DNA of 55,154 nt from positions 1-55,154 of IMG/VR virus record IMGVR_UViG_3300044714_000251, one strand, 5' to 3'. The stretch is from a virus (taxonomy: Duplodnaviria; Caudoviricetes). Made by a program: the position numbers and the translations under genes. The first letter of the stretch is position 1. The number at the start of each line of letters is the position of its first letter. The notes under the pieces were generated by a model. That model worked only from the letters and a program-made list of their open reading frames with translations, was not told where the DNA came from and did no database searches. Positions 23,841 to 42,840 of this stretch are shown in pieces.

Positions 23841-25259
23841 GTGATCTCCGTTCCCGAGGCCGGCGACATCGCGGGGCAGGTTCAGGCCGGCGTCGACCTC
23901 ATCTCCGCACTTGCGCAGGTCGCCAACGGAACGTTGGATGCTTCGGCGCTCGTCGAAAACGGAATTTCGATCGCGGGGGAGGCGTTGAGCGGTGGAATCA
24001 CGGCGGCTGCGGACGTCGTTGGAGCTGTGACGACGACCGCGCTATCGGGTCTGGCGATGACGGGGCCGACCGGAGCAGCCATCGCCGATGCGGTCGCGGC
24101 TGGGGTTTCGGCGGCGACGGCCGAGATTCCGGTGGTCGGCGAGGTGGTCGCCGTGGTGGCGGCTGTCATCGAGATTTTGGCGGCTTACGTCGGGGGTGGC
24201 GTCGATTCGGTCGACCAGGTGCTTGGCGCGTCCAAGGCGACGGCTCAGATCTGCGGTTCTATCGGACGATTTTCTTCCTCGCACAAGTCGCTCTCCGGAA
24301 ACCCAATCGGGTGGGAGATGGCGGACTATCTCGCGTTTGCGCGACCGCCAAGTTCGTCTACGTCGCCGGAGAAATTCAAGAGCCTCATGTCGGAGGTTGC
24401 CCAGTTTTACATCTCGAAGTCGAACTCCTACGCACCCGAGCTGAATCAATCGAACGACACGAACAACATCGTCAACGCGATCAACTCCTTCGTGGGGGTG
24501 GTAAACTCCTCGCTCCCCATCTACACGGCAGAAGAGTTTCTCTCCTGGCAAGTGCCGCTCTGCACGCCCGTGTGGTTCGACTGGTACAAGCCGACGGGGA
24601 TAGAAGACTGCAACACCGACCTCACCTTCGGGGGTGGCGGGGACTCGACGACCGCGCTCGCGCAGTGGCAAGCGATGGTTTCTTCCTCCGCCGCGCAAAA
24701 AAAGCTCAGTGCATGGCTCAAAGCCACGCCTTCCGTGGGTGGGCTCTCTCCGACACAAATCGTTCAGATGGCGATGGTTGCGCCACTTGACCCGCTCTAT
24801 TGGAGCTCGGATCTCTACGGGATGGTGGGGTCGAGTGGATCGGCCGACGGGTTCGCGACCGTCTACTACAACGTCGATCTGATGAACGGCATCGCCACGC
24901 ACCTGATGATGCGCGCCTCAGGCGCCTCCCCCATGGGAGTTCTCTCCGAGCTGCTCATGCAGTCCGCGCTTCTCTCGCAGTACGGCGGGACGGATTCGAG
25001 CGGCAACAGCATCCCCAATGTGTCGAAAAATCAATACGGATTTCATCGCCTTGTCGACGACTACATCACCTACGTCAACGCGCTCGGGTACTCGCAGTCG
25101 CTTTCGACCACGGGGATGGTCGGTGCGGTGGTGGCCGGTGCAGCGGGCGCGACATTGGTAGGCATTTTGGGGTATTCCCTTTGGAAGAGGCAGTCGCCTC
25201 TCGTGACGGTCGGTCAGGCAAAATCAAAAATCATTCGAGTCGGAGGCAGGTACCTATGA
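23841..25259 (+). CDS. Putative virion membrane protein with hydrophobic N-terminal hairpin and C-terminal TM
   Basis: IPVVGEVVAVVAAVIEILAAYVGGG; C-terminal TM followed by a basic tail; TAGGCT-7nt-GTG. Confidence 0.7.
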   Translation: MISVPEAGDIAGQVQAGVDLISALAQVANGTLDASALVENGISIAGEALSGGITAAADVVGAVTTTALSGLAMTGPTGAAIADAVAAGVSAATAEIPVVGEVVAVVAAVIEILAAYVGGGVDSVDQVLGASKATAQICGSIGRFSSSHKSLSGNPIGWEMADYLAFARPPSSSTSPEKFKSLMSEVAQFYISKSNSYAPELNQSNDTNNIVNAINSFVGVVNSSLPIYTAEEFLSWQVPLCTPVWFDWYKPTGIEDCNTDLTFGGGGDSTTALAQWQAMVSSSAAQKKLSAWLKATPSVGGLSPTQIVQMAMVAPLDPLYWSSDLYGMVGSSGSADGFATVYYNVDLMNGIATHLMMRASGASPMGVLSELLMQSALLSQYGGTDSSGNSIPNVSKNQYGFHRLVDDYITYVNALGYSQSLSTTGMVGAVVAGAAGATLVGILGYSLWKRQSPLVTVGQAKSKIIRVGGRYL

Positions 25260-25778: not shown

Positions 25779-27035
25779 ATGGAAGACTTCGCGTTCAGCA
25801 TCCGTCCCCCCGTTTCTCCGATCGGATTCGGCGCGGTCCCTGAGGGGCTCGGGCAACATGCCACAGCCTCCGCGCATCCTTCGTTGAACTCGATAGCGAT
25901 CCCTCATGGATCGGGGACTCCCGCGAAGCACAAGCCCCACCCCCACCGTGGCGTGGGCTCGTTCGCGGCCGCGTCACCCCAGAAGGCGAATTGGGTGCTG
26001 GCCTACGTCTACGGAGAGCGCGCACCGCGCGTGAAGATCAAGGGGAGCGGGTTCGACTACGCGAAGGTGCTTCAGCAGTTTGTGCAATCCGGCCAGCCTT
26101 CGCAGTACTTCACGTGGACGGGTACGGGCGGAACGTTTCTCTTCTCGTGCATCTACTCGGGCTCGACACCTGTGGTGCGGCTCGCGACGAACGGTCTTCA
26201 GCGCGGAATGGGACGCAAGCCAACGGGGATGGGGGACATCACGCCGGGCACCGTGACGTGCAACGCCAGCTGGATCACGATCAACTCGCCGGGTCCGAAC
26301 GCGGACTCCTTCAGCCTCACTGGATCAGACATCTCCGGCGCGCTGACGACGATGAAGAACGCATGGTCTCTCGCCATGGGCGGGAAGACGACGCCGTTCA
26401 CGGTCTCGAACGGGGCGATGCACTTCATTTTCTCAAGCGATCACACCGCGAACATCCCGATGAAGTACGACGGCGTGAATCTTTACGCGTGTGGAGTGCC
26501 GGTCACCGCGGCTCCTTCTTCGCCGCCTGCCGTGCAACCGATCGCAACCCAAGGCGTGACGCCGATCTCGGGAGGCACCTCCGTCGACAACGGCACCTAC
26601 ACCTGGGACAATTACATGTGGGTGTACCAAGCGTCGGGGTCGAACGACTCTCCAAACGGCTCTCCCCCTCCGGGACAGCCCGCGGGCGTGTCGGGGGCAT
26701 GGGTAAACGTCTCGGGCAACCAATGGAACTACTATCCGAACTCAGGCCCCCAACCGCTCCCGGTGGTCGATCCCACGGGGGTGACGTGGTGGACGTACTC
26801 GAGCGCGAACGCGGCGATGTACAACGCTCCGTCTTCGGCGTACATGCCGCCTCTTCCGGGCTCGACAGTCCCGCCAGCGTCGCTTGCGGGGACGAGCGGG
26901 TCCTGGTCGGGGAACGTGCACTCCTACTACCAGGTGTGGATTCCGACGGCCGGAATGACCGACGGTGAAATTCTCGCGATCGTTCTCCTCGGTGCGCTCG
27001 GAGTGGGTGGCGTCGCGTACCTGGTGTCGGAATGA
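25779..27035 (+). CDS. C-terminally anchored multi-domain membrane protein with several G-phi-G motifs
   Basis: IGFGAVPEGLGQ, RGVG, RGMGRKPTGMGD; Trp/Pro-rich domain; terminal TM. Confidence 0.75.
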   Translation: MEDFAFSIRPPVSPIGFGAVPEGLGQHATASAHPSLNSIAIPHGSGTPAKHKPHPHRGVGSFAAASPQKANWVLAYVYGERAPRVKIKGSGFDYAKVLQQFVQSGQPSQYFTWTGTGGTFLFSCIYSGSTPVVRLATNGLQRGMGRKPTGMGDITPGTVTCNASWITINSPGPNADSFSLTGSDISGALTTMKNAWSLAMGGKTTPFTVSNGAMHFIFSSDHTANIPMKYDGVNLYACGVPVTAAPSSPPAVQPIATQGVTPISGGTSVDNGTYTWDNYMWVYQASGSNDSPNGSPPPGQPAGVSGAWVNVSGNQWNYYPNSGPQPLPVVDPTGVTWWTYSSANAAMYNAPSSAYMPPLPGSTVPPASLAGTSGSWSGNVHSYYQVWIPTAGMTDGEILAIVLLGALGVGGVAYLVSE

Positions 27036-27403
27036 ACGGCGTAGGCTCTCCGACGGGACTCGGCATCACAGCACCGCCCGCCGCGATCAGCGGAGGGTAT
27101 GTGCCCCCGACGATTCACGCACAGCCGCTCCCCGCGCCCTCGTCCACGACCCCCACGACAGCACCCGCCTCAAGTGCTCTGACCGCACCAAGCTCGGCGC
27201 TCATGGGGAGCACATACCAAGGTCCTCGCCGCGGCACGGCCACGTGGGTTTACATTCTTGGGGGTGTCGCTGCGCTCGGAGTGATGGGCGCGCTCTATTG
27301 GGCGTTCATGCAGCCGGGGAACTCGCCGAGCGCGGCGGCGTCGGAGGGCTACCCGAAATCGAATCCGATGAGGCGTCGGCGACGTCGGCGACACAGGAAG
27401 TGA
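27032..27403 (+). CDS. Membrane protein with NP-poly-Arg C-terminus
   Basis: NGVGSPTGLG..., TM, KSNPMRRRRRRRHRK. Confidence 0.65.
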   Translation: MNGVGSPTGLGITAPPAAISGGYVPPTIHAQPLPAPSSTTPTTAPASSALTAPSSALMGSTYQGPRRGTATWVYILGGVAALGVMGALYWAFMQPGNSPSAAASEGYPKSNPMRRRRRRRHRK

Positions 27404-28305
27404 ACCGGGGGCTCGGCAAGGGCTTCGCTCCGTCGGCCTCGGCGGCCGCTGCGGCCATGCCGGGGGCGAAGATTCGCCAAGAGTCGCATCCGCCGGGCGT
27501 TGCGGGAACCACATTTTCTCTGAAGGAGATGGCGAAGTACATCCGCGATGGCCGGAACGACCCCAGGATGATCGGGTGGGCAGGACGTGTCTTGGTGAAG
27601 GCAGGAAAGCCGAAGAGCGTCACGGCTCAGGCGCAGGCCATCCTGGACGAGATTCGGCGCGTGACGATGTATCTCCCCGACGGTGTCAACACGGAAAGAG
27701 TGACCGCCGCTCCGGTTTCGCTTTGCCTCGACGAGCACGGTCTCTGTCTCCCCGCAGGCGACTGCGACGATCGCTGCGTGTGTTTTGGCTCGGGCACGAT
27801 GGCGCTCGGCATTGAGACCATGGTGGTGGCCCAAGCCTATGACGGGAGCGGTCCCAACGTCCGAGCCACGCACGTGATCTGCGCGATTTTGGATCCGAGT
27901 ACGGGCTGGCAGCGTGTCGACCCGTCGACCGACGACTTCCCGGTTGGAAAGTCGTATCCTGCGACGAAGGAGTGGTGGATGGACCCGATCACAGGCACGA
28001 CAGCGTCAACCCCTGAGGGAGCGATGCAACCGCAGGCGAACCAAGAAGCCATGCGTGGCGACTTTATCGGCGTCGGTGCTGTGCCGCGCGGTCCGGTGGT
28101 CTACGGGCATCCAACGGGTCTCGGCGCCGTTCCGTTCGAGCACGCTTTCGGTGCAGTCGACGAGGGGTGCGAGCAAGGCCCCGCGGACGTAACCGCGGAT
28201 CTCACGCACGGCGACTGCCGGCAGAGGTTTCCTCTCTACGCTCCGCAGCCCATCGGGGTCGGAGACATCCCGGTGTTTCCGGAGTGGGTTCGACGTGGCC
28301 GATAA
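27400..28305 (+). CDS. Transglutaminase-like cysteine protease (candidate maturation protease)
   Basis: GDCDD (Cys), ATHVICAI (His), WQRVDPS (Asp) in canonical order. Confidence 0.7.
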   Translation: MNRGLGKGFAPSASAAAAAMPGAKIRQESHPPGVAGTTFSLKEMAKYIRDGRNDPRMIGWAGRVLVKAGKPKSVTAQAQAILDEIRRVTMYLPDGVNTERVTAAPVSLCLDEHGLCLPAGDCDDRCVCFGSGTMALGIETMVVAQAYDGSGPNVRATHVICAILDPSTGWQRVDPSTDDFPVGKSYPATKEWWMDPITGTTASTPEGAMQPQANQEAMRGDFIGVGAVPRGPVVYGHPTGLGAVPFEHAFGAVDEGCEQGPADVTADLTHGDCRQRFPLYAPQPIGVGDIPVFPEWVRRGR

Positions 28306-28738
28306 GGCACCGACGATTCAAGCGGAGTCGAACCGCGTCATGTTCGAGATGGTCGACGGCAAGCTTGTGCGACTTCCGCCGTCGTACCGGACGCTTCACG
28401 ATCCGACGGGCACGGCGTTGCCGAAGTGCGACGTGTTCTTTGCCCCCATCAAGCGTACTTCACAAAAGGTCGACATGGGCCGCGCGGCGCGGCGTTACTT
28501 TGGTCCTGAACATCGAGGGGTCATCGCTATTCTTCCGCGTGTGAAAGACGGACCGTGGAAGGTGATCGGGAGGGTGGCCGTGATCTACTACGCGAGGCTG
28601 GGGAAACGGGCTCCGGGCGGCTTCAATCACCCGTTCAAATCGAGACAGCCCACACTCTCGAAGTCTTCGCGTGGATATTACAAGCTTTCGCTCGGACAAG
28701 GATGCTTGGTCGACGACCGAGGATACGTGTTCCCCTAG
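28295..28738 (+). CDS. Basic hypothetical protein
   Basis: 147-aa ORF overlapping the upstream stop. Confidence 0.6.
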   Translation: MADKAPTIQAESNRVMFEMVDGKLVRLPPSYRTLHDPTGTALPKCDVFFAPIKRTSQKVDMGRAARRYFGPEHRGVIAILPRVKDGPWKVIGRVAVIYYARLGKRAPGGFNHPFKSRQPTLSKSSRGYYKLSLGQGCLVDDRGYVFP

Positions 28739-28751
28739 CGGAATCGTTCAC

Positions 28752-29994
28752 CATTCTCCGGCGCGGAAGCTCGGTCCTTCAGGAGCCGAGAGGAAGCGCC
28801 GTCTTCTTGTGTTTCGTCTTGGTAGTGCTACGCCTATGTCCGTGAAGCTCGTCGCGACCGTCAAGCTGCTCGTATCGCCCGAGGAGCGAGAGCGTCTACT
28901 CGCCACCATGCGTCGCGTGAACGAGGCGTGTTCCTGGCTGGCCGAGCGGGCATTTGAGCTTCAGTCCGCCGACAAGCTCCGGCTGCAAAAGCTCTACTAT
29001 CAGGACCTGCGCAACCACTTCGGCCTGTCCTCGCAGCACGCCGTGCGGACCATATCGAAGGTCTGCGAGGTCTACCGTCGCGACAAGTCCAGGCGCTACA
29101 CCTTCAAGCCGCTTGGCGCCATCGCCTACGACCAGCGCATCTACACGTTCAAAAACGGCCTCGACCGCGTGAGCCTTCTCGCACTCGACGGGCGCATCGT
29201 CGTGCCGTGCGCCGTCGGCGCCTACCATCGCGCTCGTCTCGAAGGTGTGCGTGGCCAAGCCGACCTAGTGTGCCGCAAAGGCAAACTATTCCTCTTCGTG
29301 ACCGTCGATGTTCCCGACGGCTCGCCCATTGATCCAGAGGGCTGGCTCGGCGTCGACCTCGGCATCCGCAACCTTGCCTTCGACTCGGACGGTGAGGCCC
29401 ACTCCGGCGAGCAAACGCTCGCATTGCGATCTCGTATCTCCAGGCTTCGCGCCGGTCTCCAGTCGGTCGGCACCAAGAGCGCCAAACGACATCTCCGAAA
29501 GCTCCGAAGGAGGGAGCGGAGCTTCCACGCCCACACCAATCACGTCATCAGCAAGTCGATCGTACGCAAAGCCAAAGACACCGGACGAGGCATCGCTCTT
29601 GAGGATCTCAAGGGCATCCGAGACCGGGTAACCGTTCGAAGGGCCCAGCGCTCGACGCTGCATTCGTGGTCGTTCTTCCAGTTGCGCTCGTTCATCACCT
29701 ACAAAGCCACGCTCTCTGGCGTGACTCTCGTGGCCGTGGACCCTCGCAACACGAGCCGAACGTGCCCTGAGTGCGGCAACATCGACAAGGCGAACCGCCG
29801 CTCGCAAGCGGAGTTCGTCTGTACCGGATGCGGCTTTGCTTCGCACGCCGATTGGGTAGGCGCGCGCAACATCATCCAGGGGACCAGTAATCGCCCCCAT
29901 AGGATCGGCTGTCAGGCTGGGTATCGAGCATGTTCCGTCGAGTCCTCAGCTATGCCAGGTCCAAAGCTCCGCCCTTTAGGGCGGGGTTGATTAC
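28752..29994 (+). mobile_element. IS200/IS605-family element, solo tnpB (IS1341-like)
   Basis: Left-end hairpin region CGGCGCGGAAGCTCGGTCCTTCAGGAGCCGAG..GCGCCG (~28759-28801); right-end hairpin CTCCGCCCTTTAGGGCGGGG then TTGATTAC; no tnpA. Confidence 0.75.
28836..29990 (+). CDS. tnpB: RNA-guided endonuclease TnpB
   Basis: RuvC I GVDLG, RuvC II IALEDL, Zn finger CPEC..CTGC, RuvC III HADWVGARNI. Confidence 0.93.
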   Translation: MSVKLVATVKLLVSPEERERLLATMRRVNEACSWLAERAFELQSADKLRLQKLYYQDLRNHFGLSSQHAVRTISKVCEVYRRDKSRRYTFKPLGAIAYDQRIYTFKNGLDRVSLLALDGRIVVPCAVGAYHRARLEGVRGQADLVCRKGKLFLFVTVDVPDGSPIDPEGWLGVDLGIRNLAFDSDGEAHSGEQTLALRSRISRLRAGLQSVGTKSAKRHLRKLRRRERSFHAHTNHVISKSIVRKAKDTGRGIALEDLKGIRDRVTVRRAQRSTLHSWSFFQLRSFITYKATLSGVTLVAVDPRNTSRTCPECGNIDKANRRSQAEFVCTGCGFASHADWVGARNIIQGTSNRPHRIGCQAGYRACSVESSAMPGPKLRPLGRG

Positions 29995-30401
29995 TTGACC
30001 CAGTAGCCTGGCATGACCTCGGTGTAGCCGGATCCTCCGGTCGGCGAGACCATGCGTGTCGCGAAGCTCTTTGGACCGACCATGGTCGGAGAACTCGGAA
30101 TCCAAACCCACGCAGACTGGTTCTGTTTGCCGTTGAAGTAGTTTGTTCGCTTCACCCAGTTTCCTGCTCCCGCCTGCGGGTTGAAGTTCGGACGGTTCGG
30201 AGCGGCATACCAGCACCAGAGGACGGTGGAAAACGCGATCGAAGTGCGCTGTGCAGTCGCAGGACTGCGCGGAGCATCCCCCACCCCTACGTTCCCTCGT
30301 CCCGCGCCTTGGCCTTGATGCAAAGAGCCTGGCGTTTCTTGCTCGAATCCGAGACGGGTGGGCGGAAGAAGATGCTGCGGGAACGCGAAGTCTTTGCGCA
30401 T
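29991..30401 (-). CDS. Trp-rich protein with GVG motif, likely paralogous to parts of 25779..27035
   Basis: MRKDFAF..LPP..LGF vs MEDFAF..RPP..IGF; WVWIPS vs QVWIPT; promoter TTGCTG-17-TAGAGT-7nt-ATG. Confidence 0.55.
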   Translation of the reverse strand: MRKDFAFPQHLLPPTRLGFEQETPGSLHQGQGAGRGNVGVGDAPRSPATAQRTSIAFSTVLWCWYAAPNRPNFNPQAGAGNWVKRTNYFNGKQNQSAWVWIPSSPTMVGPKSFATRMVSPTGGSGYTEVMPGYWVK

Positions 30402-30750
30402 GAAGAGCACTCTATTCCGGCGTGGTATCGTCAGCAATATGAAGCGCCGTGGCGACGACTACGTAGATCGCATGAACAGGTTTCGCGCCGGAGAACCGTC
30501 CGGTATTGCAAACAGTGAAACTTGTATTGCAAAGCAAACTGATTCTTACGGTATTGCACGTAAGACGTCTCGACGAAAGAAGCGAAGGCCCTCCGCTTCG
30601 CTTTCGCCCGAGAAAACAAGCGCGCGCCGCAAAACAAGGCACGTCGTTGCAATACATCGTAAGCACCCCAGAAAGCGCTCTTCCAGAGGTTTGACGGGGC
30701 GATCTCAGGCGGGTACGGTCACGGAGTTATCCCAACAGGAGACTCGTTAC
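30402..30750. promoter_or_regulatory. Divergent control region of the structural operon
   Basis: TTGACG-17-TACGGT (30691-30719); AGGAG RBS; four GTATTGC sites (30503, 30524, 30551, reverse 30649-30655). Confidence 0.65.
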
Positions 30751-32115
30751 ATGCCGAAGTCGCGTCGCAAGTCCAGGGCTGCAAGGGGCCGTAAGCGAGA
30801 CGCCAAGGGACACTTCGTAAAATCTTCCGTTGCGGCGCCCAAGCGGCGCAGGCGGAGAGCACGTCGGTCGGCCGAGGCAACGGTGGCCGCCCCGAAGCGT
30901 CGACGAAGGACACGAAGGAATCCCTGGTACAAGCAACCGCGTCGGCACGCGAAGGCTGCGAAGAAGGGCTGGAGGAAGCGTCGCCGCACGCACGCGAAGC
31001 GTCGTCATGCCGCTCCGGCACGTCGGCGTCGCCGCGTGACACGAAAGAGCCGCACGATCATCGCCACCGGGCGAGGGCGTGCGCGCCGTCGGGGCTCACG
31101 TCGTTCGACCCCGATCAACATCAAGGTGTCCTTGGCTCCGAAGCGGAGGAAGGCGTCGCGAAAACGTCGCGCTTCTCCGAAGCGTCGCCATCACGCGCGC
31201 CGTCATCGTCACGCGCATTACACGCCGGCGTCGCATCAGCTCGCCGCGGATTCGTACGCGCTGTCGAACCCGCTCTCAGGTGGAGAGCTCGTCCTTCTCG
31301 CGCTGACGGGAACGATCGGGTACGGCGTGGCCGATTTCGTCGGTCGCTACATGGAGACGACCGCAACGTCGGGCGGAGCCGCGAACAGCGTCCCGACCGG
31401 CGCCACGGTGGCCAACGACGTGGCCACCACCGGTTGGCCCTCGTGGCAGGCTGGCCTGAGCCAGCTTGGCATCGCGGCGGTTCCGATCATCGGCGCATCT
31501 TTCGTGGACTCGCCGTGGGGTCGTGCTTCGCTCCAGGGCTTTGGCCTCGGCGCAGGGGCGGCTCTCTTCGGCAACCTGTTCCGAAACGCGATGGCGTCGC
31601 TCATCGGGAGCACCGCTCTCGGTCAGCAGCTCTATCTCGCCGAGTACGAAGCCCAGGCTCAGATGGGCACGGGCACGGCGGCCACGACCACCACGGGCCT
31701 TTCGGGTGTCCCGCGCGGTCGTCGGATGGTCCAAAAGGGCGTTGGAACGGCGGTCGCTTCGATGGTGCCCGGCAACGTGCCGAGCACGGTCGTGGTGCCT
31801 CGGATTTCGCAGCCGGTGACCCGGAATCCGGTCGCACCGTCCTCGAACATCCCGTCCTACAACGCAAGCACGCCTCCCGGCACGTCCCTCCAGATGCCGC
31901 CTGGCATCGTGACGAACGGCGGGGACGTGGTCGCCTCCCCTCCTCCCGGCACGCCGATTCCCGGCGGCGCTCAGGCGGGAGCCTCCTGTGCACCTTGCTC
32001 GTCAACGATGGGCGGGATCGCGGGGACCTACGACACGGCCGTGAACGCGATTCGTGACGAGTCCTGCCTCGGGAAGATTCCCGGGGGCTTCTACGGGATG
32101 TTCCCGGAGAACTGA
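30751..32115 (+). CDS. Protamine-like Arg/Lys-rich core protein fused to a membrane domain
   Basis: ~160-aa R/K/H-rich N-terminus with repeated APKRRR, then NPLSGGELVLLAL and hydrophobic segments, then a Pro-rich tail. Confidence 0.75.
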   Translation: MPKSRRKSRAARGRKRDAKGHFVKSSVAAPKRRRRRARRSAEATVAAPKRRRRTRRNPWYKQPRRHAKAAKKGWRKRRRTHAKRRHAAPARRRRRVTRKSRTIIATGRGRARRRGSRRSTPINIKVSLAPKRRKASRKRRASPKRRHHARRHRHAHYTPASHQLAADSYALSNPLSGGELVLLALTGTIGYGVADFVGRYMETTATSGGAANSVPTGATVANDVATTGWPSWQAGLSQLGIAAVPIIGASFVDSPWGRASLQGFGLGAGAALFGNLFRNAMASLIGSTALGQQLYLAEYEAQAQMGTGTAATTTTGLSGVPRGRRMVQKGVGTAVASMVPGNVPSTVVVPRISQPVTRNPVAPSSNIPSYNASTPPGTSLQMPPGIVTNGGDVVASPPPGTPIPGGAQAGASCAPCSSTMGGIAGTYDTAVNAIRDESCLGKIPGGFYGMFPEN

Positions 32116-32142
32116 TTTCCAGAGAGAGCTGATTTCCAGAGA
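32112..32142 (+). repeat. 14-bp direct repeat CTGATTTCCAGAGA x2
   Basis: 32112-32125 and 32129-32142, upstream of the capsid candidate. Confidence 0.8.
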
Positions 32143-32184
32143 AAACGTCGAGGGTTCTCTATTGGGGCCCTCCAGGAGAGACAC

Positions 32185-33453
32185 ATGTACAAGCAAGCCA
32201 GCAGCCGATCGATGCAGGGTCACCCGAGCCGCCAGATTGGCCTTGGGCAAGCGCCGAGCGACAACGTCGTCAACAGCGTTCTGTCGTGCGGATTCACGCA
32301 AGTCCCCGTCATCGAGTACGTGACGTGGACGCTCGACTTGCCCGTCCCGGACGCGGCGATCGACGCGACCTTCGGCGACGAGATCGACGTCCTCCAGAAC
32401 CCCAAGTCGGTCGCCGGCGTCGAGGACGTGGACTCAAGCTTTGTCATCAACGGCATTCTCCAAGTCGACATGCTCGTCATCGGGTTCGGCGTGCACGGCT
32501 TCGCGGAGCCCACGAACGGCGCCCAGATCGGCAACTACGTCAACCCGGCTCCCACGGCCGGCGCCGTGAACCCGTCCCCCGACAGCTACACCCAGAACGA
32601 CGTCATCAACGGCGCGCTCGGCGCGGACATCGGCACGGGAGGTGTGGCGGGTTCCTCGACGATCACCCCCGCGGTGCTCGAGTGGGGCGTCTGCGCGCAG
32701 AACGCGCTCTGGCACCTCATGAACGCGTACCAGTTCCAGTGGATCATGCAGCAGCGTTACCTGCTCATCAACGAGCTCGCGGCGGATGTGGCCTACTTCG
32801 GAAGCTACGCCGAGGCGGTTGCTGCGGGTTCCTCGAGCGCGGCGTTCCAGCGCCTCGTGCGACGCGTGAACAACAAGTACGCGTCTCTCGGCGCCCCGGG
32901 CGCGTTCCTTCCGATCAACGCCCAGCGCATCGGAAGCACGACGACCCTGACGACCACCAACAAGGGCATGTTCCACCCGACGCGAGCCTACGATCTCTTG
33001 GACGAGACGATCGGCGGTCTTCGCGCGCAGGGCATGAACGGCATGCTTCAGCCGTTCCGGAAGCTCTTCAAGCCGGTCCTCCTCGAGAAAGGCATTCCGA
33101 TCGGCATGCTGCTCCGCCAGCAGGACCAGTACCACGCGACGCTCATGCAGCAGTACCTGTCGCAGTCGGATTCTCTCGGCGGGACCGTGTCGACCATCTC
33201 GGTCGGCCCGACCACGAGCGGCCTGACCTCGACGACGGCCAACGAGTTCCTGGAGCTCACCTTGGATGCGACCCCGCTCGCGGTGCCGCAGCAAGTCCAG
33301 ACCGACCGAGTCCTCCTGAAGGGCGGCGCGCTGCAACTCGCCATCCTCATCAAGGGCTTCGAGGTGTGGGGCCCCTGGAAGCAGTATATCCTGAACAACC
33401 TCGTCCCGGCGGGCGCGGTCGGAACCGCGGCTTCGGCCGGATCGGCGGGCTGA
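32185..33453 (+). CDS. Candidate major capsid/structural protein (possibly jelly-roll)
   Basis: 422 aa, no clear TM, alternating beta-type segments, strong C/G-ending codon bias, AGGAG RBS, downstream hairpin, N-terminal IGLGQ; no HK97 hallmarks seen. Confidence 0.5.
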   Translation: MYKQASSRSMQGHPSRQIGLGQAPSDNVVNSVLSCGFTQVPVIEYVTWTLDLPVPDAAIDATFGDEIDVLQNPKSVAGVEDVDSSFVINGILQVDMLVIGFGVHGFAEPTNGAQIGNYVNPAPTAGAVNPSPDSYTQNDVINGALGADIGTGGVAGSSTITPAVLEWGVCAQNALWHLMNAYQFQWIMQQRYLLINELAADVAYFGSYAEAVAAGSSSAAFQRLVRRVNNKYASLGAPGAFLPINAQRIGSTTTLTTTNKGMFHPTRAYDLLDETIGGLRAQGMNGMLQPFRKLFKPVLLEKGIPIGMLLRQQDQYHATLMQQYLSQSDSLGGTVSTISVGPTTSGLTSTTANEFLELTLDATPLAVPQQVQTDRVLLKGGALQLAILIKGFEVWGPWKQYILNNLVPAGAVGTAASAGSAG

Positions 33454-33531: not shown

Positions 33532-34155
33532 ATGACGACCGCCAATCAACAGCCTCGCCCGGTAGACATCGAAAGACTCGCGATGGTCGACCCGATCGCG
33601 GCCTACGGCATCGTCCTCGGGATTCCACAGATTCCACTGAGCATGAACTGCTCGGCTTCGTTCTCCTCGTTCGCGCTCGACCAGCAGCCCGTGGAGGGAG
33701 ACCTGGACACGACGATCGCCCAGAGGACCTGGGTCGACAACATCCAGTTTTCGCTCCAGCTCCCGAACGTCTTCGCGAACGACGTGTTCCAGAGTCAGTA
33801 CGTGGCGATGCTCAAGCAGTCGCCTGGCATTTCGATCCAGATGATCGTCCAGGGGGGGCCTCGCTACCTCGTGTCGCCGGAGTTCACTCCGCTCGAAAAC
33901 TTCGTGAACGTCCTCAACGGGACGCGCTGGACTTCTGGATGGCCGCTCTTCAAGCAGCAGAGCATCCAGGTGTTCTTTCAGCTCACGCAAGCGCCGTCGG
34001 GGTTGTCGCCAAACGCTCCGCCCTACAACGTGACGCTGACGTTCAACTGTTGGCAATTTTTGGATCACACAGTGGACGAGGTCAGCGTCGACGTGGCTGC
34101 CCGCAAACTCCGTGACCTAGGCTTCTTCGTACCCAAGGCCGTAGAGTGCCCCTGA
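33532..34155 (+). CDS. Putative beta-rich virion protein
   Basis: 207 aa, alternating hydrophobic strands, adjacent to the capsid candidate. Confidence 0.6.
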   Translation: MTTANQQPRPVDIERLAMVDPIAAYGIVLGIPQIPLSMNCSASFSSFALDQQPVEGDLDTTIAQRTWVDNIQFSLQLPNVFANDVFQSQYVAMLKQSPGISIQMIVQGGPRYLVSPEFTPLENFVNVLNGTRWTSGWPLFKQQSIQVFFQLTQAPSGLSPNAPPYNVTLTFNCWQFLDHTVDEVSVDVAARKLRDLGFFVPKAVECP

Positions 34156-34168
34156 ACGGAGGCACCCC

Positions 34169-35101
34169 TTGCGTAGAGGTCGATCAGAGCTTGTCACCGT
34201 AGGTCAGAACCCGAATCTCCAGCTCGTTGGCTCCGGGCCAGAAGGGGGGCCGTACGACCTCGGCCTGATGATCGGGCCGAATGGCGGCGCGCGCATTCGG
34301 CAGACGTTTCTCCTGGCAACCAAGACCTTCGGCGCGCACACGCGCGGGTACTTGAGAGGTCTGCGGCAGTACTTGACGATTGGTACCTACCTGCCTGTCT
34401 CGGGGACCGCGCAAGGGTACCTGCTCGAGACGCCGGTGGTCACGCCGACGTGGAAGTTTTCGGACGGGAACGTGATGTGGATGCTCCGGAAGATTCCGGG
34501 ATCCAAGAGCCACTTCACGCCGAACGCGAGCAACGGTCCTGGCATTTCGTTCCGCACCGCAAACACTCCCTCGCTCCTCTTCGAGACGGTCACGGGGAAT
34601 CCTCCGTACGTGACCTCGACCCCGCCCTACGGCGGAAGGCCTCCGGGCAACATTCTCGTGCCCGAGCTTGGAAGGTTTTTCGACCTCCGTTCGTCCTGGG
34701 CAGAGCCCCTCGAGCTCGACATTGAGATCTCGGGGCCTTGCACGATTGCGTTTTTCGCGAGCGTTCAGCAGACGATCCCGATCTCCGCCGGCGGGACGCA
34801 AATCGTCCCCCCGGCCACTCCGGTCATTTCCACGATCGCGGGAGCGGCGCCTGAGGACGCGTTTCTCCAGACCTACTCCTCGAGCGGCACGCCCGTGAGC
34901 TACATTCGCATTGCGGGTGCGCTCCAATTCGAGTACGTCGACTTCGCGCCGAGTGGCATGCCGAAGACCTACCGCTCCGCGTCGGTCGGGGATCGGCTCA
35001 CGAGCGACCGCGCGGTCACGGGAGACAACGAGATCCGGCAGAGCGGCGCGATCACGAGCGGCACGGGCGTGCCGATCGATTGCGAAGGCGGAAAGAAATG
35101 A
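34169..35101 (+). CDS. Putative virion protein
   Basis: 310 aa, beta/Pro-rich, GGAGG RBS. Confidence 0.6.
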   Translation: MRRGRSELVTVGQNPNLQLVGSGPEGGPYDLGLMIGPNGGARIRQTFLLATKTFGAHTRGYLRGLRQYLTIGTYLPVSGTAQGYLLETPVVTPTWKFSDGNVMWMLRKIPGSKSHFTPNASNGPGISFRTANTPSLLFETVTGNPPYVTSTPPYGGRPPGNILVPELGRFFDLRSSWAEPLELDIEISGPCTIAFFASVQQTIPISAGGTQIVPPATPVISTIAGAAPEDAFLQTYSSSGTPVSYIRIAGALQFEYVDFAPSGMPKTYRSASVGDRLTSDRAVTGDNEIRQSGAITSGTGVPIDCEGGKK

Positions 35102-35424
35102 ACGACCGGATCTTCTCTCCGCACCTTCTCGTCGGGCTTGGCTCCTCCACGCCTCCGTCAAGCGCTCTGGCGCCGCCCTCGCCTCCCCCTGAAGAGAAAG
35201 AGGCGTGCTGTTCGGAGTGCGCCGAGAGTGGCGGATCGTGCGGTTCGAAATCGACCGCGTTTCTGCCGGGACAAAACTCCAGCTTCCCTATCGGATTCGG
35301 TCAGACGCCGACGACCACGATCGTTCAGGACGCCGCGACGGCATGGGCGGTGCCGTTGACCATCGGCGCGATCGCGCTCGTGGCGGGCTTCGGACTCGCG
35401 TACGTGATTGCGGGGAACAAGTGA
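35098..35424 (+). CDS. C-terminally anchored membrane protein (GLG, GFGQ, Cys cluster)
   Basis: LLVGLGSS, CCSEC, PIGFGQT, TM. Confidence 0.65.
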   Translation: MNDRIFSPHLLVGLGSSTPPSSALAPPSPPPEEKEACCSECAESGGSCGSKSTAFLPGQNSSFPIGFGQTPTTTIVQDAATAWAVPLTIGAIALVAGFGLAYVIAGNK

Positions 35425-35741
35425 ACGTCTTCGACCGCAACCTGGTGGGCTTTGGGCAGCCCGCGAGCTCGCTCAACGGGTCCGATGGGTCGGACGGGAG
35501 TGACACCGACACGGGCGGGAATAGCCTCCTCCAGTCCGGTGGAAACACGACGCTCGTCGGGAGTGGCACGAGCACGTCGGGAGGGGATGGGTCTTCCTCG
35601 AGCGGGGACGATTCAAGCTCGCTCGCGTCCATCGCGACGACAGCGGAGGACAACTGGCCGTGGGTGGTTGGAGGTGTGGCGGTCGTCGCGGGGGTCGCGG
35701 CCATCGCGTACTTTGCGCACAGGAAGGCGACGAAGCGATGA
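35421..35741 (+). CDS. C-terminally anchored membrane protein
   Basis: NVFDRNLVGFGQ, Ser/Gly/Asp linker, TM. Confidence 0.65.
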   Translation: MNVFDRNLVGFGQPASSLNGSDGSDGSDTDTGGNSLLQSGGNTTLVGSGTSTSGGDGSSSSGDDSSSLASIATTAEDNWPWVVGGVAVVAGVAAIAYFAHRKATKR

Positions 35742-36151
35742 ATGTCTTCGACCGAAATTTGATTGGCCTCGGCCAAAACTACCTATGGGAGAAGTACCCT
35801 GGGGAGATCGCTCCTCTTGGCGCCACCGTCGTGGACGGAATGGCGGCCTTCCAGCCCGCGCACACAAGCACGGTCGGGCTTGGGCACACGGGACTTTCTG
35901 GATGCCCGGCGTGTGAGCGCGCACGGGGGATGGGCCAGACGGACCCAACGACGACGCCGCCTTCGACGACGGGCGGAGCGCCGCTCCCGACACCGCCCTC
36001 GGCGGTCGACACGACGTCCTCGGCTCCGGTCCCCTCGGGGACCAACTCCTCCTCAACGAACATCCCGCTTCTCGTCACAGGCATTGCTGCTGTAGCTCTC
36101 GGCCTTGGAGGTATCGCGTGGCTCGCTCACAATCGCACGACGGCGGGATGA
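35738..36151 (+). CDS. C-terminally anchored membrane protein
   Basis: NVFDRNLIGLGQ, VGLG, CPAC, RGMGQT, TM. Confidence 0.65.
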   Translation: MNVFDRNLIGLGQNYLWEKYPGEIAPLGATVVDGMAAFQPAHTSTVGLGHTGLSGCPACERARGMGQTDPTTTPPSTTGGAPLPTPPSAVDTTSSAPVPSGTNSSSTNIPLLVTGIAAVALGLGGIAWLAHNRTTAG

Positions 36152-36152
36152 G

Positions 36153-36890
36153 ATGTCCTGCTCCGCACACCCGGTTGTTGACGAGATCTCTCTTGCGCTG
36201 TGGATGAGCTCGACCATGCCGCCCGAACTCCCTGCCCCGCCCGATCCCCGCACCCTTCAGGGGATTGGTGCGGCCATCTCCGAACTCTCGAGACAAGCCA
36301 AGGATGGTTTCGAAGGTCTGCGCCGTGACGTCAAGGGGGTCCGCGAAGACGTGCTCGAGGTCCGCGAAGAGCTGCGCGACGTGCGGAAAGAGCAAATGCG
36401 CGCAGACATCCGGATGGACAAGGTCGAAGAGCGCCTTGAAATTGTAGAGGAGTCCCCGGCGAAGACCGAGGCCTCCGAAACCGCGGCCCGAGCCGCCGAG
36501 GCGGTTGCGCAGGCTGCGGCGGAGGCGGCGAGGTCGGTGGCGAGCGCGGCTTCTCTCGCGCTCAAGCAAGAGCGACGGGAGCGACAAGCGGAGCGACCCA
36601 GTAAGATCTCTCTCGAGACGGCGAGCAAGGTCGTTCTGAACTCGATGCCTCCGCCGAAGTACGATCTCGGCGTGCAGATCTCGGACTCGGGCGTTCACAT
36701 GAAAATGCCGACGGATGAGTACAAGCGTCTCGTGACGCAGAACCAAGCCGCGGCAGCTCTTCGGCGCGAGAAGTGGGTCCTTCACAAGGGCTCCGTGCTT
36801 TTGATGATCGTCGCCTCTGCGTTTTTGGGAGGGGCTGCCAAGTCGTGCGCTTCGGCGCTGGTGCATTCGCACGTGGAGAATCGACCATGA
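36153..36890 (+). CDS. Coiled-coil protein with C-terminal TM
   Basis: Heptads LRRDVKGVREDVLEVREELRDV; hydrophobic C-terminus; start uncertain. Confidence 0.6.
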   Translation: MSCSAHPVVDEISLALWMSSTMPPELPAPPDPRTLQGIGAAISELSRQAKDGFEGLRRDVKGVREDVLEVREELRDVRKEQMRADIRMDKVEERLEIVEESPAKTEASETAARAAEAVAQAAAEAARSVASAASLALKQERRERQAERPSKISLETASKVVLNSMPPPKYDLGVQISDSGVHMKMPTDEYKRLVTQNQAAAALRREKWVLHKGSVLLMIVASAFLGGAAKSCASALVHSHVENRP

Positions 36891-39418: not shown

Positions 39419-40135
39419 ATGCCGGACGTGCTGGCCCGACGGGCAAAGGTGATTGCAGACGAGGCCCTTCTCCGTGCCGTCCATGGCGGAGGAGGTGGGG
39501 GCGGCGGCATCACGCAACTCACGGGAGATGTCACGGCGGGTCCCGGCTCGGGTGCAGTTGCGGCCATAGTGGCTCGAGCCAACGGGGCGACGATTCCGGC
39601 GGCGGGCGGACTCACTCCAGGCAACGTTCTTCAAGTTACCGGAGCGAGCGCGCTCGGGTATGCGCCGGTCAACTTGGCTTCCGCGGCCTCTGTTACAGGG
39701 CTTCTTCCGGTCGCGAACATCGCGCCAGCGGGAACGAACGGGTTCATTCTCACAACGACAGGTGGCGTGGCCGTATGGGCCGCCAATGGAGGCGGATCCG
39801 ATCTCACCCCGCGCGTGACGGTCAATCATGGGAACTCTCCTTTTACGGCCCTTCCTGGATACCGGCACATTGTCGACGAGTCTGAAGGCGCCGTAACGAT
39901 CAACCTTCCTTTGGGATCTCCGGCGGGGACAGACATCGCGATCAAAATCCTCACAGGACCCACGACGAACGGGCTAACCGTAAATGCCCCCTCTGGAGGA
40001 ACCGTCGAACAGTCACTCGAGGAGGCGGGGAGCGGTGGGGTTTACGCATCCTCGGCAACGTTCACCTCCGCGCAGGACATCGGAACCTCATTCACGTGGG
40101 AGTGTGATGGGTCCAACAATTGGGAGGCCGTCTGA
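39419..40135 (+). CDS. Second fibre/spike protein, N-terminal paralogue of 36887..38206
   Basis: About 100 aa near-identical (GITQLTGDVTAGPGSGAV...NIAPAGTNGF.LTTTGGV); different C-terminus. Confidence 0.75.
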   Translation: MPDVLARRAKVIADEALLRAVHGGGGGGGGITQLTGDVTAGPGSGAVAAIVARANGATIPAAGGLTPGNVLQVTGASALGYAPVNLASAASVTGLLPVANIAPAGTNGFILTTTGGVAVWAANGGGSDLTPRVTVNHGNSPFTALPGYRHIVDESEGAVTINLPLGSPAGTDIAIKILTGPTTNGLTVNAPSGGTVEQSLEEAGSGGVYASSATFTSAQDIGTSFTWECDGSNNWEAV

Positions 40136-42840
40136 TGCGTTTGCTTTGGATTTTCCTTCTGGCTTTCGTTTCGGCATGTTCGGCGCGCAGCATCCCCGTG
40201 CCTGCACCCGAGACCAAAGACGCCACAGTAGTGGTAGAGCCTCCGCCTCCGACCGTTCCAGGACGTCTCCTTGGAGCAAACGGGAATTTTGCATTTCCCA
40301 TCGGCCCCGCCTCTCTGAGCGGATTCGACGCCGGAACATACCCCAACCCGATCATCCCCGAAGGCTCGCAAGGTACGTTTTACCCAGGATCAGTCTCGAA
40401 TCTTGTCGACCAGAACTCGCTCATCTGGGGTGACGTGACGCAGCCTGAATGGCAAGGTGTGAGTTGCTATCTCACGGGTCCTACGGGCACGCCACAACTC
40501 ATTGGAGGCGCGGGGCAGAGCCCCGACGGTTCGCAGGACGCGGTCTGGGTCAACGAAGGTGCGGTCTCGTCGGGGGTGCTTGCACTCTCCCACGACGCTT
40601 TCGTCCCGACCGGCGTGACGAGTTTCAATTTCGAGATCGACGTGATGAACGCGCCTGGGGGGAGCGCAGTTAGCGTCCCCATGATCATCCTGAATTCGAA
40701 TTCAGGATGCGGTGGCAATGGTGCGATAGCGACAAGCAACACGAGTACTTGCGTCACAACGAACTCATGGCAAACGTGCCGACTTGCATCGGGGACGGTG
40801 GCTCACGGCACGGCCTATACGGTTCAGATCCCGCTCAACTACTCCACCCTTGGGACTGCGGGGGCGACCTTTCTCATCGCGCGCGCGCGCATCGTACCGA
40901 CCGGGTCGATTTCGCCCCCGCTCTTTCGATCCCCTGAGTCCTCACCCGCCGGAAGCTTCTATCGCTACGAAGCGAGCCCTGTTCTTTGGGACAACATCCA
41001 CTCGGATTTTGTTGGGGTTGGCGGAGTGGGCGGAGTCGGCCTGGCTCCCTTCCGGCAGTACTTGTTTCAGAGCCCATTTGCCCGGATGGTCTTCCAATCC
41101 AACGGACAGACTCAGGTCGGTCTAGAGGTTTTGAACGCGGGACTCACGAGTACGCCCAACCAACAAGTGGGCGTCAATGTGAACGGACGTCCGTACGCGA
41201 GCTTTGTCGGCGCGACGTCGCCCATGGTCGAGGACGCTACAACCCTGACGCTTCCCTCGGGGAACAACGAGATCGAATTCGTCGGCGGCGAACAAGGTTA
41301 CATCGGGCTCGGAATCTATCCAGAGAGCGCCGGCATCAGCGGTGAGTTCGTCCGAGCGGCCTACTCGACCACACCTCTCACGGTGCTTCCTCCGCCAAAA
41401 CCCTCGCGAACCGTGGTGGTGTGGGGGGATTCGAAGGAGGCCGGGATCTGGAGCACGAATCCTCCTGCCCAGGGATTTCCGGTTCTGTTGAGGCAGATGC
41501 TTGGTGGTCAAACGAGCACGGTCATCGAGGCCGTCGGGTCGAGCACCCTGAACAACGACACCAACACTCCAGCGCTTATCACCCAACTCGCTCAGCGCAT
41601 GGCCCGTGCGCGACCAGACATTCTTCTGTCGGTCATCGGCCGCAACGACTGGGCCGATTCCACGATGACACCCACCGTCTTTACAGCAACACTCGAGGCA
41701 GCATGGGATGCCATTCACGCAGCCACTCCAAGCACGCAGATCGTGGCCGTCACCTGGTGGCTCGAGTCCGTTGCACAAGAGTCCTCGACGATCAGTGGGT
41801 TCACGCTCGCAAACTTTCGTGCGGCGGAGCAGAACGCGTGCACGGCGAGGCCTACCTACTGCGTGTTCATGAACGCATCGACGGGGATTCCAAACTGGAA
41901 TCAAGCCTCGGGAGCTGGATCTAGCCTCTACACCGACGGCGTCCACCCCTCGAACTACGGATCGGGACAAGCCGCCAGCTACGTAGGTCTTCAGGTCTCG
42001 CATCTTCTGCCTGCATCGTCTTCGCTTCAGAGCTGGTACCCAGCGGAAACGGCCCAGACATGCTTGGTTCAGGCGCAGAACGTCGCGGCGGGGAGCCACG
42101 ATCTTTGCATCTACGCAACCGATCAGGCGAATGTCATCTACTACGGAGACCAGTACAACAACGGCGTCTACATCAACTCGAGCGCGAGTGTCACGCTTGG
42201 CATTCCTGGCGCCGACGCTCTTACACTTGTCCGCGGGACGGGCGGAGGGACGCTGGAATTTACGGGAAACATTTTCCAGTTTTCGAACGTCGCAGCCTCG
42301 GCGAACGCAATCGTCAACCAGAGTCAGCCCATCACCGATATCCCAGCAACTCCACTGACGGTTCAGGCGCAAGGAGCTTCGACAGGGGCTGTCACCAATG
42401 TAGTGGGAGGGGTCACGCAAGTCTTGGCCGGGCAGGGGACCACGCCCGCGAACAACGGTGGCATCTTGTTGGGGTATGGGCTCCAGACAGCTCCCACGCC
42501 CTTTTTCAGTTACGGCACCGGCGGAAACGGATGGATCCCGCAGACCTCTTCACAGTCGCTCGCCACGACACCAGTCACCCTAACATCCACCGAACTCTTG
42601 ACGCCCTATGTGATCTACACAGGAGCTCTCTCGGCAAACCCCACCGTCGTGAATCTACCAAACGTCGCCGGCATGTGGTTCATGGACATTTCCGCGGTCA
42701 CGAACACCACGGGCAACGCCATTGAGTTCGTGAGCGGTTCGGCCACCTGCTCTACGATTCCAGGGGCTTTGACGGTCGCGAACGATCTCGTCATCGTCCA
42801 TACGACGGGCGCAAACGGCATCACCTGCGGACTCCTGTGA
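40135..42840 (+). CDS. Large lipoprotein-signal protein with SGNH/GDSL hydrolase domain
   Basis: MRLLWIFLLAFVSA-C; VVWGDS, IGRND, DGVHP. Confidence 0.8.
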   Translation: MRLLWIFLLAFVSACSARSIPVPAPETKDATVVVEPPPPTVPGRLLGANGNFAFPIGPASLSGFDAGTYPNPIIPEGSQGTFYPGSVSNLVDQNSLIWGDVTQPEWQGVSCYLTGPTGTPQLIGGAGQSPDGSQDAVWVNEGAVSSGVLALSHDAFVPTGVTSFNFEIDVMNAPGGSAVSVPMIILNSNSGCGGNGAIATSNTSTCVTTNSWQTCRLASGTVAHGTAYTVQIPLNYSTLGTAGATFLIARARIVPTGSISPPLFRSPESSPAGSFYRYEASPVLWDNIHSDFVGVGGVGGVGLAPFRQYLFQSPFARMVFQSNGQTQVGLEVLNAGLTSTPNQQVGVNVNGRPYASFVGATSPMVEDATTLTLPSGNNEIEFVGGEQGYIGLGIYPESAGISGEFVRAAYSTTPLTVLPPPKPSRTVVVWGDSKEAGIWSTNPPAQGFPVLLRQMLGGQTSTVIEAVGSSTLNNDTNTPALITQLAQRMARARPDILLSVIGRNDWADSTMTPTVFTATLEAAWDAIHAATPSTQIVAVTWWLESVAQESSTISGFTLANFRAAEQNACTARPTYCVFMNASTGIPNWNQASGAGSSLYTDGVHPSNYGSGQAASYVGLQVSHLLPASSSLQSWYPAETAQTCLVQAQNVAAGSHDLCIYATDQANVIYYGDQYNNGVYINSSASVTLGIPGADALTLVRGTGGGTLEFTGNIFQFSNVAASANAIVNQSQPITDIPATPLTVQAQGASTGAVTNVVGGVTQVLAGQGTTPANNGGILLGYGLQTAPTPFFSYGTGGNGWIPQTSSQSLATTPVTLTSTELLTPYVIYTGALSANPTVVNLPNVAGMWFMDISAVTNTTGNAIEFVSGSATCSTIPGALTVANDLVIVHTTGANGITCGLL

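Follow-up and report, generated by a model that had tools for sequence, protein, structure and literature searches.

The window analyzed here is a 55,154-bp stretch of viral DNA, which is the whole IMG/VR record IMGVR_UViG_3300044714_000251, and our subject is an open reading frame (ORF) at 30751-32115 that lies directly upstream of a gene for a 422-residue capsid candidate. We found that this ORF encodes a translated Arg-rich domain fused to a membrane-type domain, and that the same arrangement recurs beside the capsid gene in related viruses. We propose that its product, hereafter called the polybasic protein, sits in an internal membrane of the virion and uses its polybasic arm to bind the double-stranded DNA (dsDNA) genome non-specifically and to neutralize its charge. 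We put the probability of this reading at about one half. A preliminary description of this DNA had listed an Arg-rich tract, APKRRR units, an NP motif, hydrophobic helices, a GVG site and a CxxC motif, and all of them are present where it had placed them.

Translation and architecture of the polybasic protein

Among the 126 six-frame ORFs of at least 165 residues in the window, the Arg-rich tract is the most basic (49% Arg, Lys and His; R/K/H). Composition alone is weak evidence of coding, because in DNA with about 62% G+C the out-of-frame ORFs over real genes reach 41-42% R/K/H in the same set. The tract could then be an untranslated or out-of-frame artefact of G+C-rich DNA, with the true start near the membrane core. 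Relatives are often called with later starts, and the public gene call for the window contig, which starts at V96 (31036), is a milder version of the same explanation.

The pattern of sequence change speaks for translation. Codon alignments between the window and three relatives returned ratios of nonsynonymous to synonymous substitution rates (dN/dS) of 0.11-0.20 for the Arg-rich part, which matches the constraint on the membrane core (0.16-0.33). The values were 0.13-0.19 for the C-terminal tail and 0.39-0.54 for the linker, where estimable. Changes in the Arg-rich part are concentrated at third codon positions (36/22/81 for the three positions when the window is compared with L010, one of the related loci described below). 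A co-occurring strain, represented by contigs from two soil runs, differs from the window across 30751-32112 by four single-nucleotide polymorphisms (SNPs), all of them synonymous, and the sole indel is the exact deletion of one codon (30979-30981) in a KRRR run. Relatives share the N-terminus M(P/A)KSRRKSRAARGRKRDAKGHFVK (pattern MxKSRRKSRAA..KGHFVK), and those of full length carry one to four copies of the module (N/D)PWxGQPRRHAKAAKKGWRRRR. Selection, synonymous SNPs, the codon deletion and the conserved N-terminal peptide together exclude a true start near 31350, the case that would have undone the preliminary description, and indicate that the public call is too short. The Shine-Dalgarno (SD) sequence and the ATG are conserved as well, and a conserved promoter lies upstream. 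An untranslated Arg-rich part is thus extremely improbable. With the helices predicted by AlphaFold2, these data uphold the claim that a translated Arg-rich domain is fused to a membrane-type domain.

The ORF can be divided into the following parts:

30751-32115, + strand: short-form coding sequence (ATG at 30751, stop at 32113-32115; 454 residues plus stop)
30751-31245, + strand: polybasic domain, residues 1-165 (composition, conserved motifs, variable module number, dN/dS)
31246-31680, + strand: membrane core, residues 166-310, the best-conserved part (hydropathy, AlphaFold2, invariant columns)
31681-31890, + strand: linker, residues 311-380, Thr/Ala- and Pro-rich and predicted to be disordered
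31891-32112, + strand: C-terminal tail, residues 381-454 (conserved columns, dN/dS)

The polybasic domain contains 51 Arg, 19 Lys and 10 His with a single Asp and a single Glu (about 48-49% R/K/H), which gives a net charge of about +68. Units of the (A)APKRRR type begin at residues 28, 46, 87 and 128, and the domain also holds MPKSRRKSRAARGRKRDAKGHFVK, AAPKRRRR units, the NPWYKQPRRHAKAAKKGWRKRRR module (residues 57-79) and a predicted hairpin (102-107/122-127). The membrane core shows SNPLSGGE followed by hydrophobic segments at residues 179-198 and 234-254 (Kyte-Doolittle). AlphaFold2, run with 31 homologues, placed helices at 177-203, 232-248 and 255-285 (predicted local distance difference test, pLDDT, 77-87) and an amphipathic helix at 289-310. 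At least two hydrophobic helices reach the length needed to cross a bilayer, and the protein is predicted to be of membrane type. The linker varies in length between aligned sequences and has the conserved motifs G-L-P-R-G-V-G-R and R-G-V-G; residues 309-374 have pLDDT < 50. The tail carries PPGIxTNxGD, CxxC (residues 413-416; 31987-31998), SCLG, a third conserved Cys at 439, a short predicted helix (423-435) and a terminal FPE.

The whole protein matched no family in Pfam or PHROGs, and residues 1-165 had no Pfam match even at E <= 1. Searches of PDB sequences with the polybasic protein and the capsid candidate as profiles, and with a 446-residue neighbor as a single sequence, returned chance-level rows only. 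A search of the ESM Atlas with residues 166-454 returned solely unnamed viral clusters (score 0.86), of which we made no use. A structural search with the low-confidence model of the protein retrieved generic membrane-protein helices only (best Z 8.0).

A word-indexed search found 31 homologues, none of them named, and 323 representative clusters emerged from an exhaustive profile search at E <= 1e-3, 191 of them at <= 1e-10. The polybasic gene lies directly upstream of a homologue of the 422-residue gene in all 10 loci that were fetched (eight distinct sequences, since L005 is a duplicate of L003 and L006 of L002). In the longer loci we see a conserved block composed of g22272-g23841-g25779-g26965, the polybasic gene, and the genes for proteins of 422, 207 and 310 residues. 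A second set, collected with the 422-residue protein, contained 37 IMG/VR loci down to 40% capsid-protein identity. We analyzed 35 of them after dropping the partial L043 and L047; L011-L013 repeat L001-L003, L036 is the same as L037 and L044, and L018 the same as L038. The ORF just upstream of the capsid-gene homologue has the polybasic-membrane-Cys architecture in 32 of the 35 loci, the three exceptions being cut by contig ends. In these 32 ORFs a 100-residue window with 44-58% R/K/H is followed by hydrophobic segments. Two to four Cys occur in the last 80 residues of 34 of the 35 upstream ORFs (the exception, L031, is cut by a contig end and has one), and a profile of the window's subgroup matches the membrane core in 30. 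The synteny with the 422-residue gene, which the preliminary description had named as a point to check in homologues, holds in both sets.

The arm itself is variable. In 26 loci it measures 91-277 residues, with a net charge of +38 to +96 (median +57.5) and an R:K ratio ranging from 78:12 to 28:71; that of L016 is Lys/Ala-rich and resembles histone H1. A further 142 representatives include 88 with at least 80 residues before the core, and every one of these is polybasic in this part (best 80-residue window 30-61% R/K/H). What is conserved is charge and architecture rather than sequence.

The capsid candidate and a proposed role in the virion

The next gene downstream of the polybasic gene is as follows:

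32185-33453, + strand: gene of the 422-residue capsid candidate (third-position G+C, homologues, AlphaFold2, structural matches)

Its G+C content at third codon positions (GC3, 0.89-0.90) is the highest of the window and it has 142 homologues. The AlphaFold2 model is beta-rich (pLDDT 84.9; predicted template modelling score 0.83). When the model was compared with known structures by VIA-align, the top rows were mostly vertical jelly-roll capsid proteins: SPV1 (Z 6.0, root-mean-square deviation 7.9, 122 residues aligned), SGIV (5.9), STIV (5.6) and PRD1 P3 (5.5; 161-167 residues aligned over model residues 23-422, 13-14% identity). Further rows were EhV-201, D13, PBCV-1, faustovirus, FLiP, hexon, HHIV-2, HCIV-1 and P23-77, with PBCV-1, D13 and FLiP within Z 4.5-5.9. 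The product is probably a jelly-roll capsid protein and may be a double jelly roll. The earlier view of this gene as a capsid candidate therefore stands, on best matches that are weak (all Z < 8). A complex prediction between the capsid candidate and residues 376-454 of the polybasic protein scored 0.00, with controls not run, and has no bearing either way on binding.

The constancy of this gene pair bears on whether the polybasic protein is structural at all. A non-structural, host-directed protein that compacts or sequesters host or phage DNA from a membrane anchor, or that acts in superinfection exclusion or lysis, would be compatible with polybasic and membrane features taken alone. Nor does the timing of expression speak against it, as the only contigs from an RNA library cover the gene's last 46 nt and part of the capsid gene. 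Such a function is nevertheless very unlikely: across the whole virus family the gene keeps an invariant place in the morphogenetic block, beside the capsid gene with its top GC3 value of 0.89-0.90, and its product resembles no holin or known exclusion protein in Pfam or PHROGs.

Membrane-type segments are found in 9 of the 22 proteins encoded at 21.5-45 kb, mostly as single C-terminal anchors. A wealth of small membrane-anchored proteins is the look of membrane-containing phages. Proteins with hydrophobic anchors near the capsid gene are encoded at 23841-25259 (with an additional internal segment), 25779-27035, 35205-35741, 36105-36890, 43241-43486 (with an N-proximal anchor) and 43661-44086. 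None matches a known family, and from their sequences they are candidate virion membrane proteins.

The position of the polybasic gene immediately before the capsid gene is also scaffold-like. The capsid candidate and several neighbors are net acidic (-9, -14, -10 and -18), and a gene two positions upstream looks, by eye only, like a cysteine protease, so that processing is possible. These features would suit an assembly factor similar to PRD1 P10 or PM2 P3/P6, whose arm attaches to anionic lipids or to acidic surfaces on capsid or scaffold proteins and recruits or curves the membrane under the growing shell, and which may or may not remain in the particle. However, an arm of 91-277 residues with about 36-52% R+K goes far beyond what docking to lipids or proteins needs, and (A/S)PKRR motifs are typical of minor-groove binders. 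We therefore regard a pure assembly function as distinctly unlikely.

In the mechanism that we favor, the N-terminal arm of about 165 residues (net charge about +68, or about +85 in the long form described below) would bind the dsDNA genome non-specifically and neutralize its charge. The three-helix core would anchor the protein in a virus-internal lipid membrane, and the Pro-rich spacer and Cys tail would reach from this membrane to a partner, which may be the capsid, another core protein or another copy of the same protein. By simple arithmetic, a genome of 55,154 bp has about 110,000 phosphate charges, and at +68 per copy about 400 copies neutralize a quarter and about 800 a half of them. 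The copy number of adenovirus protein VII is said to be of the same order. We infer the DNA binding, the virion location, the virion membrane and the sidedness of the domains, the membrane from the capsid-like fold and the many membrane-anchored neighbors.

A membrane core and a DNA-binding-looking arm in one chain, encoded in the structural module, could also belong to a genome-delivery (pilot or ejection) protein. Such a protein would be DNA-bound in the particle, its core inserting into the host membrane as a conduit while the arm escorts the DNA, as in the tube-forming membrane proteins of PRD1, T7 gp14-16 and phiX174 H. The conserved extreme C-terminus and Cys motif could then dock to a vertex or to a host structure. 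This explanation overlaps with ours in that both assume a DNA-associated virion protein, and it differs in giving the protein its main role in entry rather than condensation. The strongly conserved charge of +38 to +96 per copy fits bulk neutralization better than a few pilot copies, similarity to known ejection proteins is absent in Pfam, PHROGs and PDB sequences, and no vertex or tube proteins were identified alongside. We consider a delivery role rather unlikely.

Several observations weigh against a DNA-binding membrane protein of the virion. The whole-protein model is poor (mean pLDDT 56.8), and the number of membrane passes is ambiguous (two to four by prediction), so that the C-terminal tail may lie on either side. 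For the capsid candidate, unrelated beta-sandwiches occur at Z values similar to those of the capsid-fold matches, all of them below 8, and Foldseek searches of the model against PDB and BFVD returned nothing at E <= 1e-3. The jelly-roll assignment, and hence the internal membrane, is for these reasons probable rather than proven. Moreover, 54 of the 142 further representatives are called with fewer than 80 residues before the core, and these may be either mis-called starts or genuinely short forms.

Topology is a further difficulty. By the positive-inside rule, a polybasic arm is retained on the cytoplasmic face of the membrane, and in PRD1-type assembly this face is turned to the capsid shell, away from the DNA-filled lumen. 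A tether of the kind proposed here thus needs a non-PRD1 assembly route: the membrane could form around a cytoplasmic DNA-protein condensate, or open sheets could be used. The need for a different route makes a motor-less reading attractive, though unproven.

Packaging genes were sought throughout the window and in related contigs. The window ORFs have no match to a terminase, portal, HK97 capsid, tail, FtsK/HerA or A32 family in Pfam or PHROGs. The models of FtsK/HerA- and A32-type ATPases, PF01580 and PF04665, have no match in the window or in the related contigs G001 and G002, where a very divergent ATPase is still possible. Of the terminase and HK97-capsid models, PF03237 and PF05065 are absent from G001-G005, and PF03354 and PF04466 from G000-G002. 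Recognizable hallmark genes of packaging and of tailed phages are thus missing from the lineage as a whole. No ORF with a Walker A motif within 6 kb of the capsid gene is consistent across the 37 loci. Walker A scans located P-loops in three proteins of the replication module and nowhere else (AAA_24, the SF2 helicase and PrimPol-VapE), and we do not regard these as packaging enzymes. In motor-less packaging, hundreds of membrane-anchored polybasic copies would collapse the replicated genome onto a membrane patch, and this condensate would next be enclosed by the membrane and the jelly-roll shell. In such concurrent assembly the protein would serve at once as packaging device and as tether between genome and membrane. 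Bacterial viruses would then have an equivalent of the nucleoprotein-core plan seen in the archaeal virus SPV1 and of the concurrent model under discussion for adenovirus. The idea draws solely on the failure to find a packaging ATPase, which is absence of evidence, and we hold it to be unlikely.

The upstream frame and other genes of the window

The frame of the polybasic gene continues upstream of ATG 30751, where we identified the following features:

30439-30750, + strand: in-frame upstream extension of 104 codons from ATG 30439, probably coding (open frame, conserved N-terminal motif)
30503-30655, no strand assigned: cluster of GTATTGCAA, with direct copies at 30503, 30524 and 30551 and an inverted copy at 30647-30655 (motif count)
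30691-30719, + strand: putative sigma-70-type promoter, with -35 TTGACG (30691-30696), a 17-nt spacer and -10 TACGGT (30714-30719) (conservation)
30737-30741, + strand: Shine-Dalgarno sequence AGGAG, 9 nt before ATG 30751 (read from the sequence)

The extension, which begins MKRRGDDYVDRMNRFR, is basic and evolves fast. In the window the frame is open upstream to about 30319, and some 130 codons before the internal ATG remain open in all eight loci with enough DNA. The 420 nt before this ATG contain 0-1 in-frame stops in these loci, compared with 3-11 in the other two plus-strand frames. The peptide at the start of the extension is conserved as M..(G)DxY(V/A)xRMNxFR (N-terminal motif Y[VAD]xR[ML]), and as MG(L/V)YDDRL in distant relatives. 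The outer ATG sits only about 23 nt (L003) or 41 nt (L002) past the stop of the preceding conserved ORF, which leaves no room for a non-coding spacer. The dN/dS of the extension is 0.42-0.67 and third-position bias is absent. From this combination, the extension is probably translated, giving a long form of 558 residues with a net charge of +85. The gene model of the preliminary description (30751-32115) is consequently real as an ORF but incomplete, in that 30439-30750 is probably translated too.

The extension is also a hot spot of microdiversity in comparison with the co-occurring strain. This close strain has 16 SNPs in the 312 nt, with nine amino acid changes and zero stops, versus four SNPs in the next 1,362 nt.

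The internal start has signals of its own. An SD-like pattern precedes the Met that initiates the polybasic part in 27 of 30 loci, compared with 18% of all in-frame codons of the same ORFs. The promoter pattern TTGAC[G/A]-17-TAnnnT occurs 48-78 nt upstream of the inner ATG in the window's subgroup (A4), amid otherwise diverged, fast-evolving sequence: the -35 element is invariant and the -10 element TAnnnT is present in six of six loci, when the background rate of the motif is 0.001 per 110 nt. It is absent upstream of the internal ATG in 25 more distant loci. A generic promoter scan of 29900-32300 returned no sites, because the -10 element matches TATAAT at only three of six positions. The promoter that the preliminary description had placed in front of the gene thus gains support from a conserved -35/-10 pair just upstream of it, although this pair lies inside the probable coding extension and not ahead of the whole frame.

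The polybasic gene thus shows a single open frame and two conserved starts, with a ribosome-binding site belonging to the inner start, which are the marks of a nested in-frame pair. Such a pair is the simplest account of these sequences, and two forms are probably made: a 558-residue long form, and a 454-residue short form from its own promoter. The long and short proteins of lambda C/Nu3 and T7 4A/4B are nested in frame on the same plan. The long form would start at ATG 30439, and an abundant short form would arise from the promoter at 30691-30719 and the SD/ATG at 30751. A run of an RNA library gave two small contigs, 32070-32242 (including the last 46 nt of the polybasic gene) and 33039-33286, which are too little to indicate transcription, its start or co-transcription.

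The GTATTGCAA motif has 12 matches in the window versus 2.9 expected by shuffling, and none of 100 shuffles reaches 12. Other copies lie close to gene starts at 10040, 10303, 13316, 19917 and 38818. The core TATTGCA recurs at matching offsets for all four copies of the cluster in L001 and for the three direct copies in L010. From their number and placement, these copies are candidate binding sites of a phage regulator.

In distant relatives (L036 2441-5830 and L039 2281-5871; also L021, L032 and L040) the extension includes a conserved, folded-looking segment, GWTVEKAKxWAKxHGYK…VAREETM, which has no Pfam match, and the whole protein exceeds 1,000 residues.

We considered cleavage of the adenain type at the RGVG motifs, as well as removal of the extension by the protease-like neighbor. 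By eye, the family of this 446-residue neighbor (26965-28305) resembles transglutaminase or papain-like cysteine proteases. Its homologue in L003 (6354-8918) has 854 residues instead of 446, and the extra segment has a weak match to a Hint module (E 6e-4, below the Pfam cut-off), which suggests an intein inside the CDDRC motif.

Between this neighbor and the polybasic gene lie two further ORFs:

28295-28738, + strand: conserved ORF of 147 residues that precedes the polybasic gene in relatives (tblastn, 56-63% identity to ORFs in L001, L002 and L003)
28836-29990, + strand: TnpB (IS200/IS605 OrfB), in an ORF from GTG 28671 (Pfam Cas12f1-like_TNB, 4.5e-21, and OrfB_IS605)

The 147-residue ORF has no Pfam family. 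TnpB separates it from the polybasic gene in the window and has a tblastn match in none of the 10 related loci, which suggests a recent insertion into the structural module, outside its conserved part. Downstream of the capsid gene, the genes for 207 residues (33532-34155) and 310 residues (34169-35101) are conserved (51-70% identity) in every locus whose DNA extends that far, and no family matches them; their products may be penton or vertex proteins. A 906-residue protein (40120-42840) combines a GDSL lipase/acylhydrolase domain with a weak match to a tail-fibre PHROG, and may be a spike that degrades the host envelope.

Searches in Pfam and PHROGs identified a replication and recombination set of phage style on the contig, composed of PrimPol-VapE, a PD-(D/E)XK nuclease, AAA_24, an SF2 helicase and RadC. 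An integrase is also present, together with a Mom-like DNA-modification protein (52751-53254; PHROG 1384, E 6e-23). End repeats are absent from the window, and its completeness is estimated at 92% by CheckV. Both ends (1-750 and 54697-55154) are pentapeptide-repeat coding sequence with a 15-nt period, matched by Pfam Pentapeptide at the left end. The break in the assembly probably fell within a single repeat-rich gene, so that the genome may be nearly complete. Two relatives, G001 (the contig of L001; 63,432 bp) and G002 (the contig of L003; 60,039 bp), have direct terminal repeats and an estimated completeness of 100%; they are the two with such repeats among lineage contigs that span 55-127 kb.

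The C-terminal part of the polybasic protein and the capsid candidate had zero tblastn matches in 50,697 deposited phage genomes. L010, a single contig of 2.6 kb, and the capsid homologue P0067 bear the label of an Acidimicrobiales metagenome-assembled genome, but we did not adopt this host, since contigs of that length are binned too unreliably. Our full-text literature searches brought up no description of the protein or of the virus group, which is not proof of absence. The lineage apparently consists of widespread, hitherto undescribed, uncultured soil phages.

Related systems and significance

Adenoviruses, baculoviruses, giant viruses and some archaeal viruses, few in number, possess polybasic proteins that condense the genome. 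Adenovirus VII, mu and V, baculovirus P6.9 and protamines are soluble proteins that neutralize or condense a dsDNA genome, with jelly-roll-lineage capsids as the viral setting. Like the polybasic protein, they have long Arg-rich tracts nearly free of acidic residues, in which charge rather than sequence is conserved. In contrast to these soluble proteins, the arm described here continues into a membrane core of several helices and a Cys tail, and it has no sequence similarity to them in Pfam or among PDB sequences. Chlamydial Hc1/Hc2 and the tails of eukaryotic H1-type histones share low complexity rich in K/A or R and (S/A)PKK/PKRR units, a style to which L016 conforms. However, they are cellular nucleoid proteins without a membrane domain, and the polybasic protein has no Pfam match.

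Other comparisons concern the particle. The capsid protein of SPV1 (Portogloboviridae) is the nominal, weak top structural match of the 422-residue model, and the VP1 nucleoprotein core of this virus can be likened to the arrangement proposed here. SPV1 infects archaea, has a genome of about 20 kb and is to our knowledge devoid of a packaging ATPase; its VP1 is a separate soluble protein, unlike the membrane-anchored polybasic protein. In phiX174, protein J tethers DNA to the shell: its N-terminal part is basic and binds the genome, and its C-terminal part is hydrophobic and provides the anchor inside the particle. J differs in having about 37 residues, in binding single-stranded DNA, and in acting without a membrane and with a dedicated packaging pathway, and there is no homology between the two. 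The 422-residue model aligns over its whole length with P3 of PRD1 (Tectiviridae; Z 5.5), and as in such viruses the module around the capsid candidate is rich in small membrane-anchored proteins. The PRD1 genome measures about 15 kb; those of the present lineage measure 55-63 kb, no FtsK/HerA- or A32-type ATPase was detected in them, and no cultured phage carries the polybasic gene or the capsid gene. By analogy, it is plausible that the polybasic protein works like the polybasic genome-binding proteins of viruses while being a member of none of the named families.

Within the reach of our literature search, no bacterial virus was found in which a polybasic arm is fused to a membrane anchor. 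The polybasic protein characterizes a considerable uncultured lineage (323 representative clusters), which combines a jelly-roll-type capsid gene with a replication module in the style of tailed phages and has no recognizable packaging ATPase. Since gene callers place its start wrongly, as in the public call at residue 96, the family is under-annotated. Condensation of DNA and its tethering to a membrane by this protein are plausible, and replacement of a packaging motor is speculation. If the genome is indeed bound to an inner membrane, the polybasic protein would provide a handle on how DNA is organized in large membrane-containing phages, and on motor-less encapsidation in bacteria.

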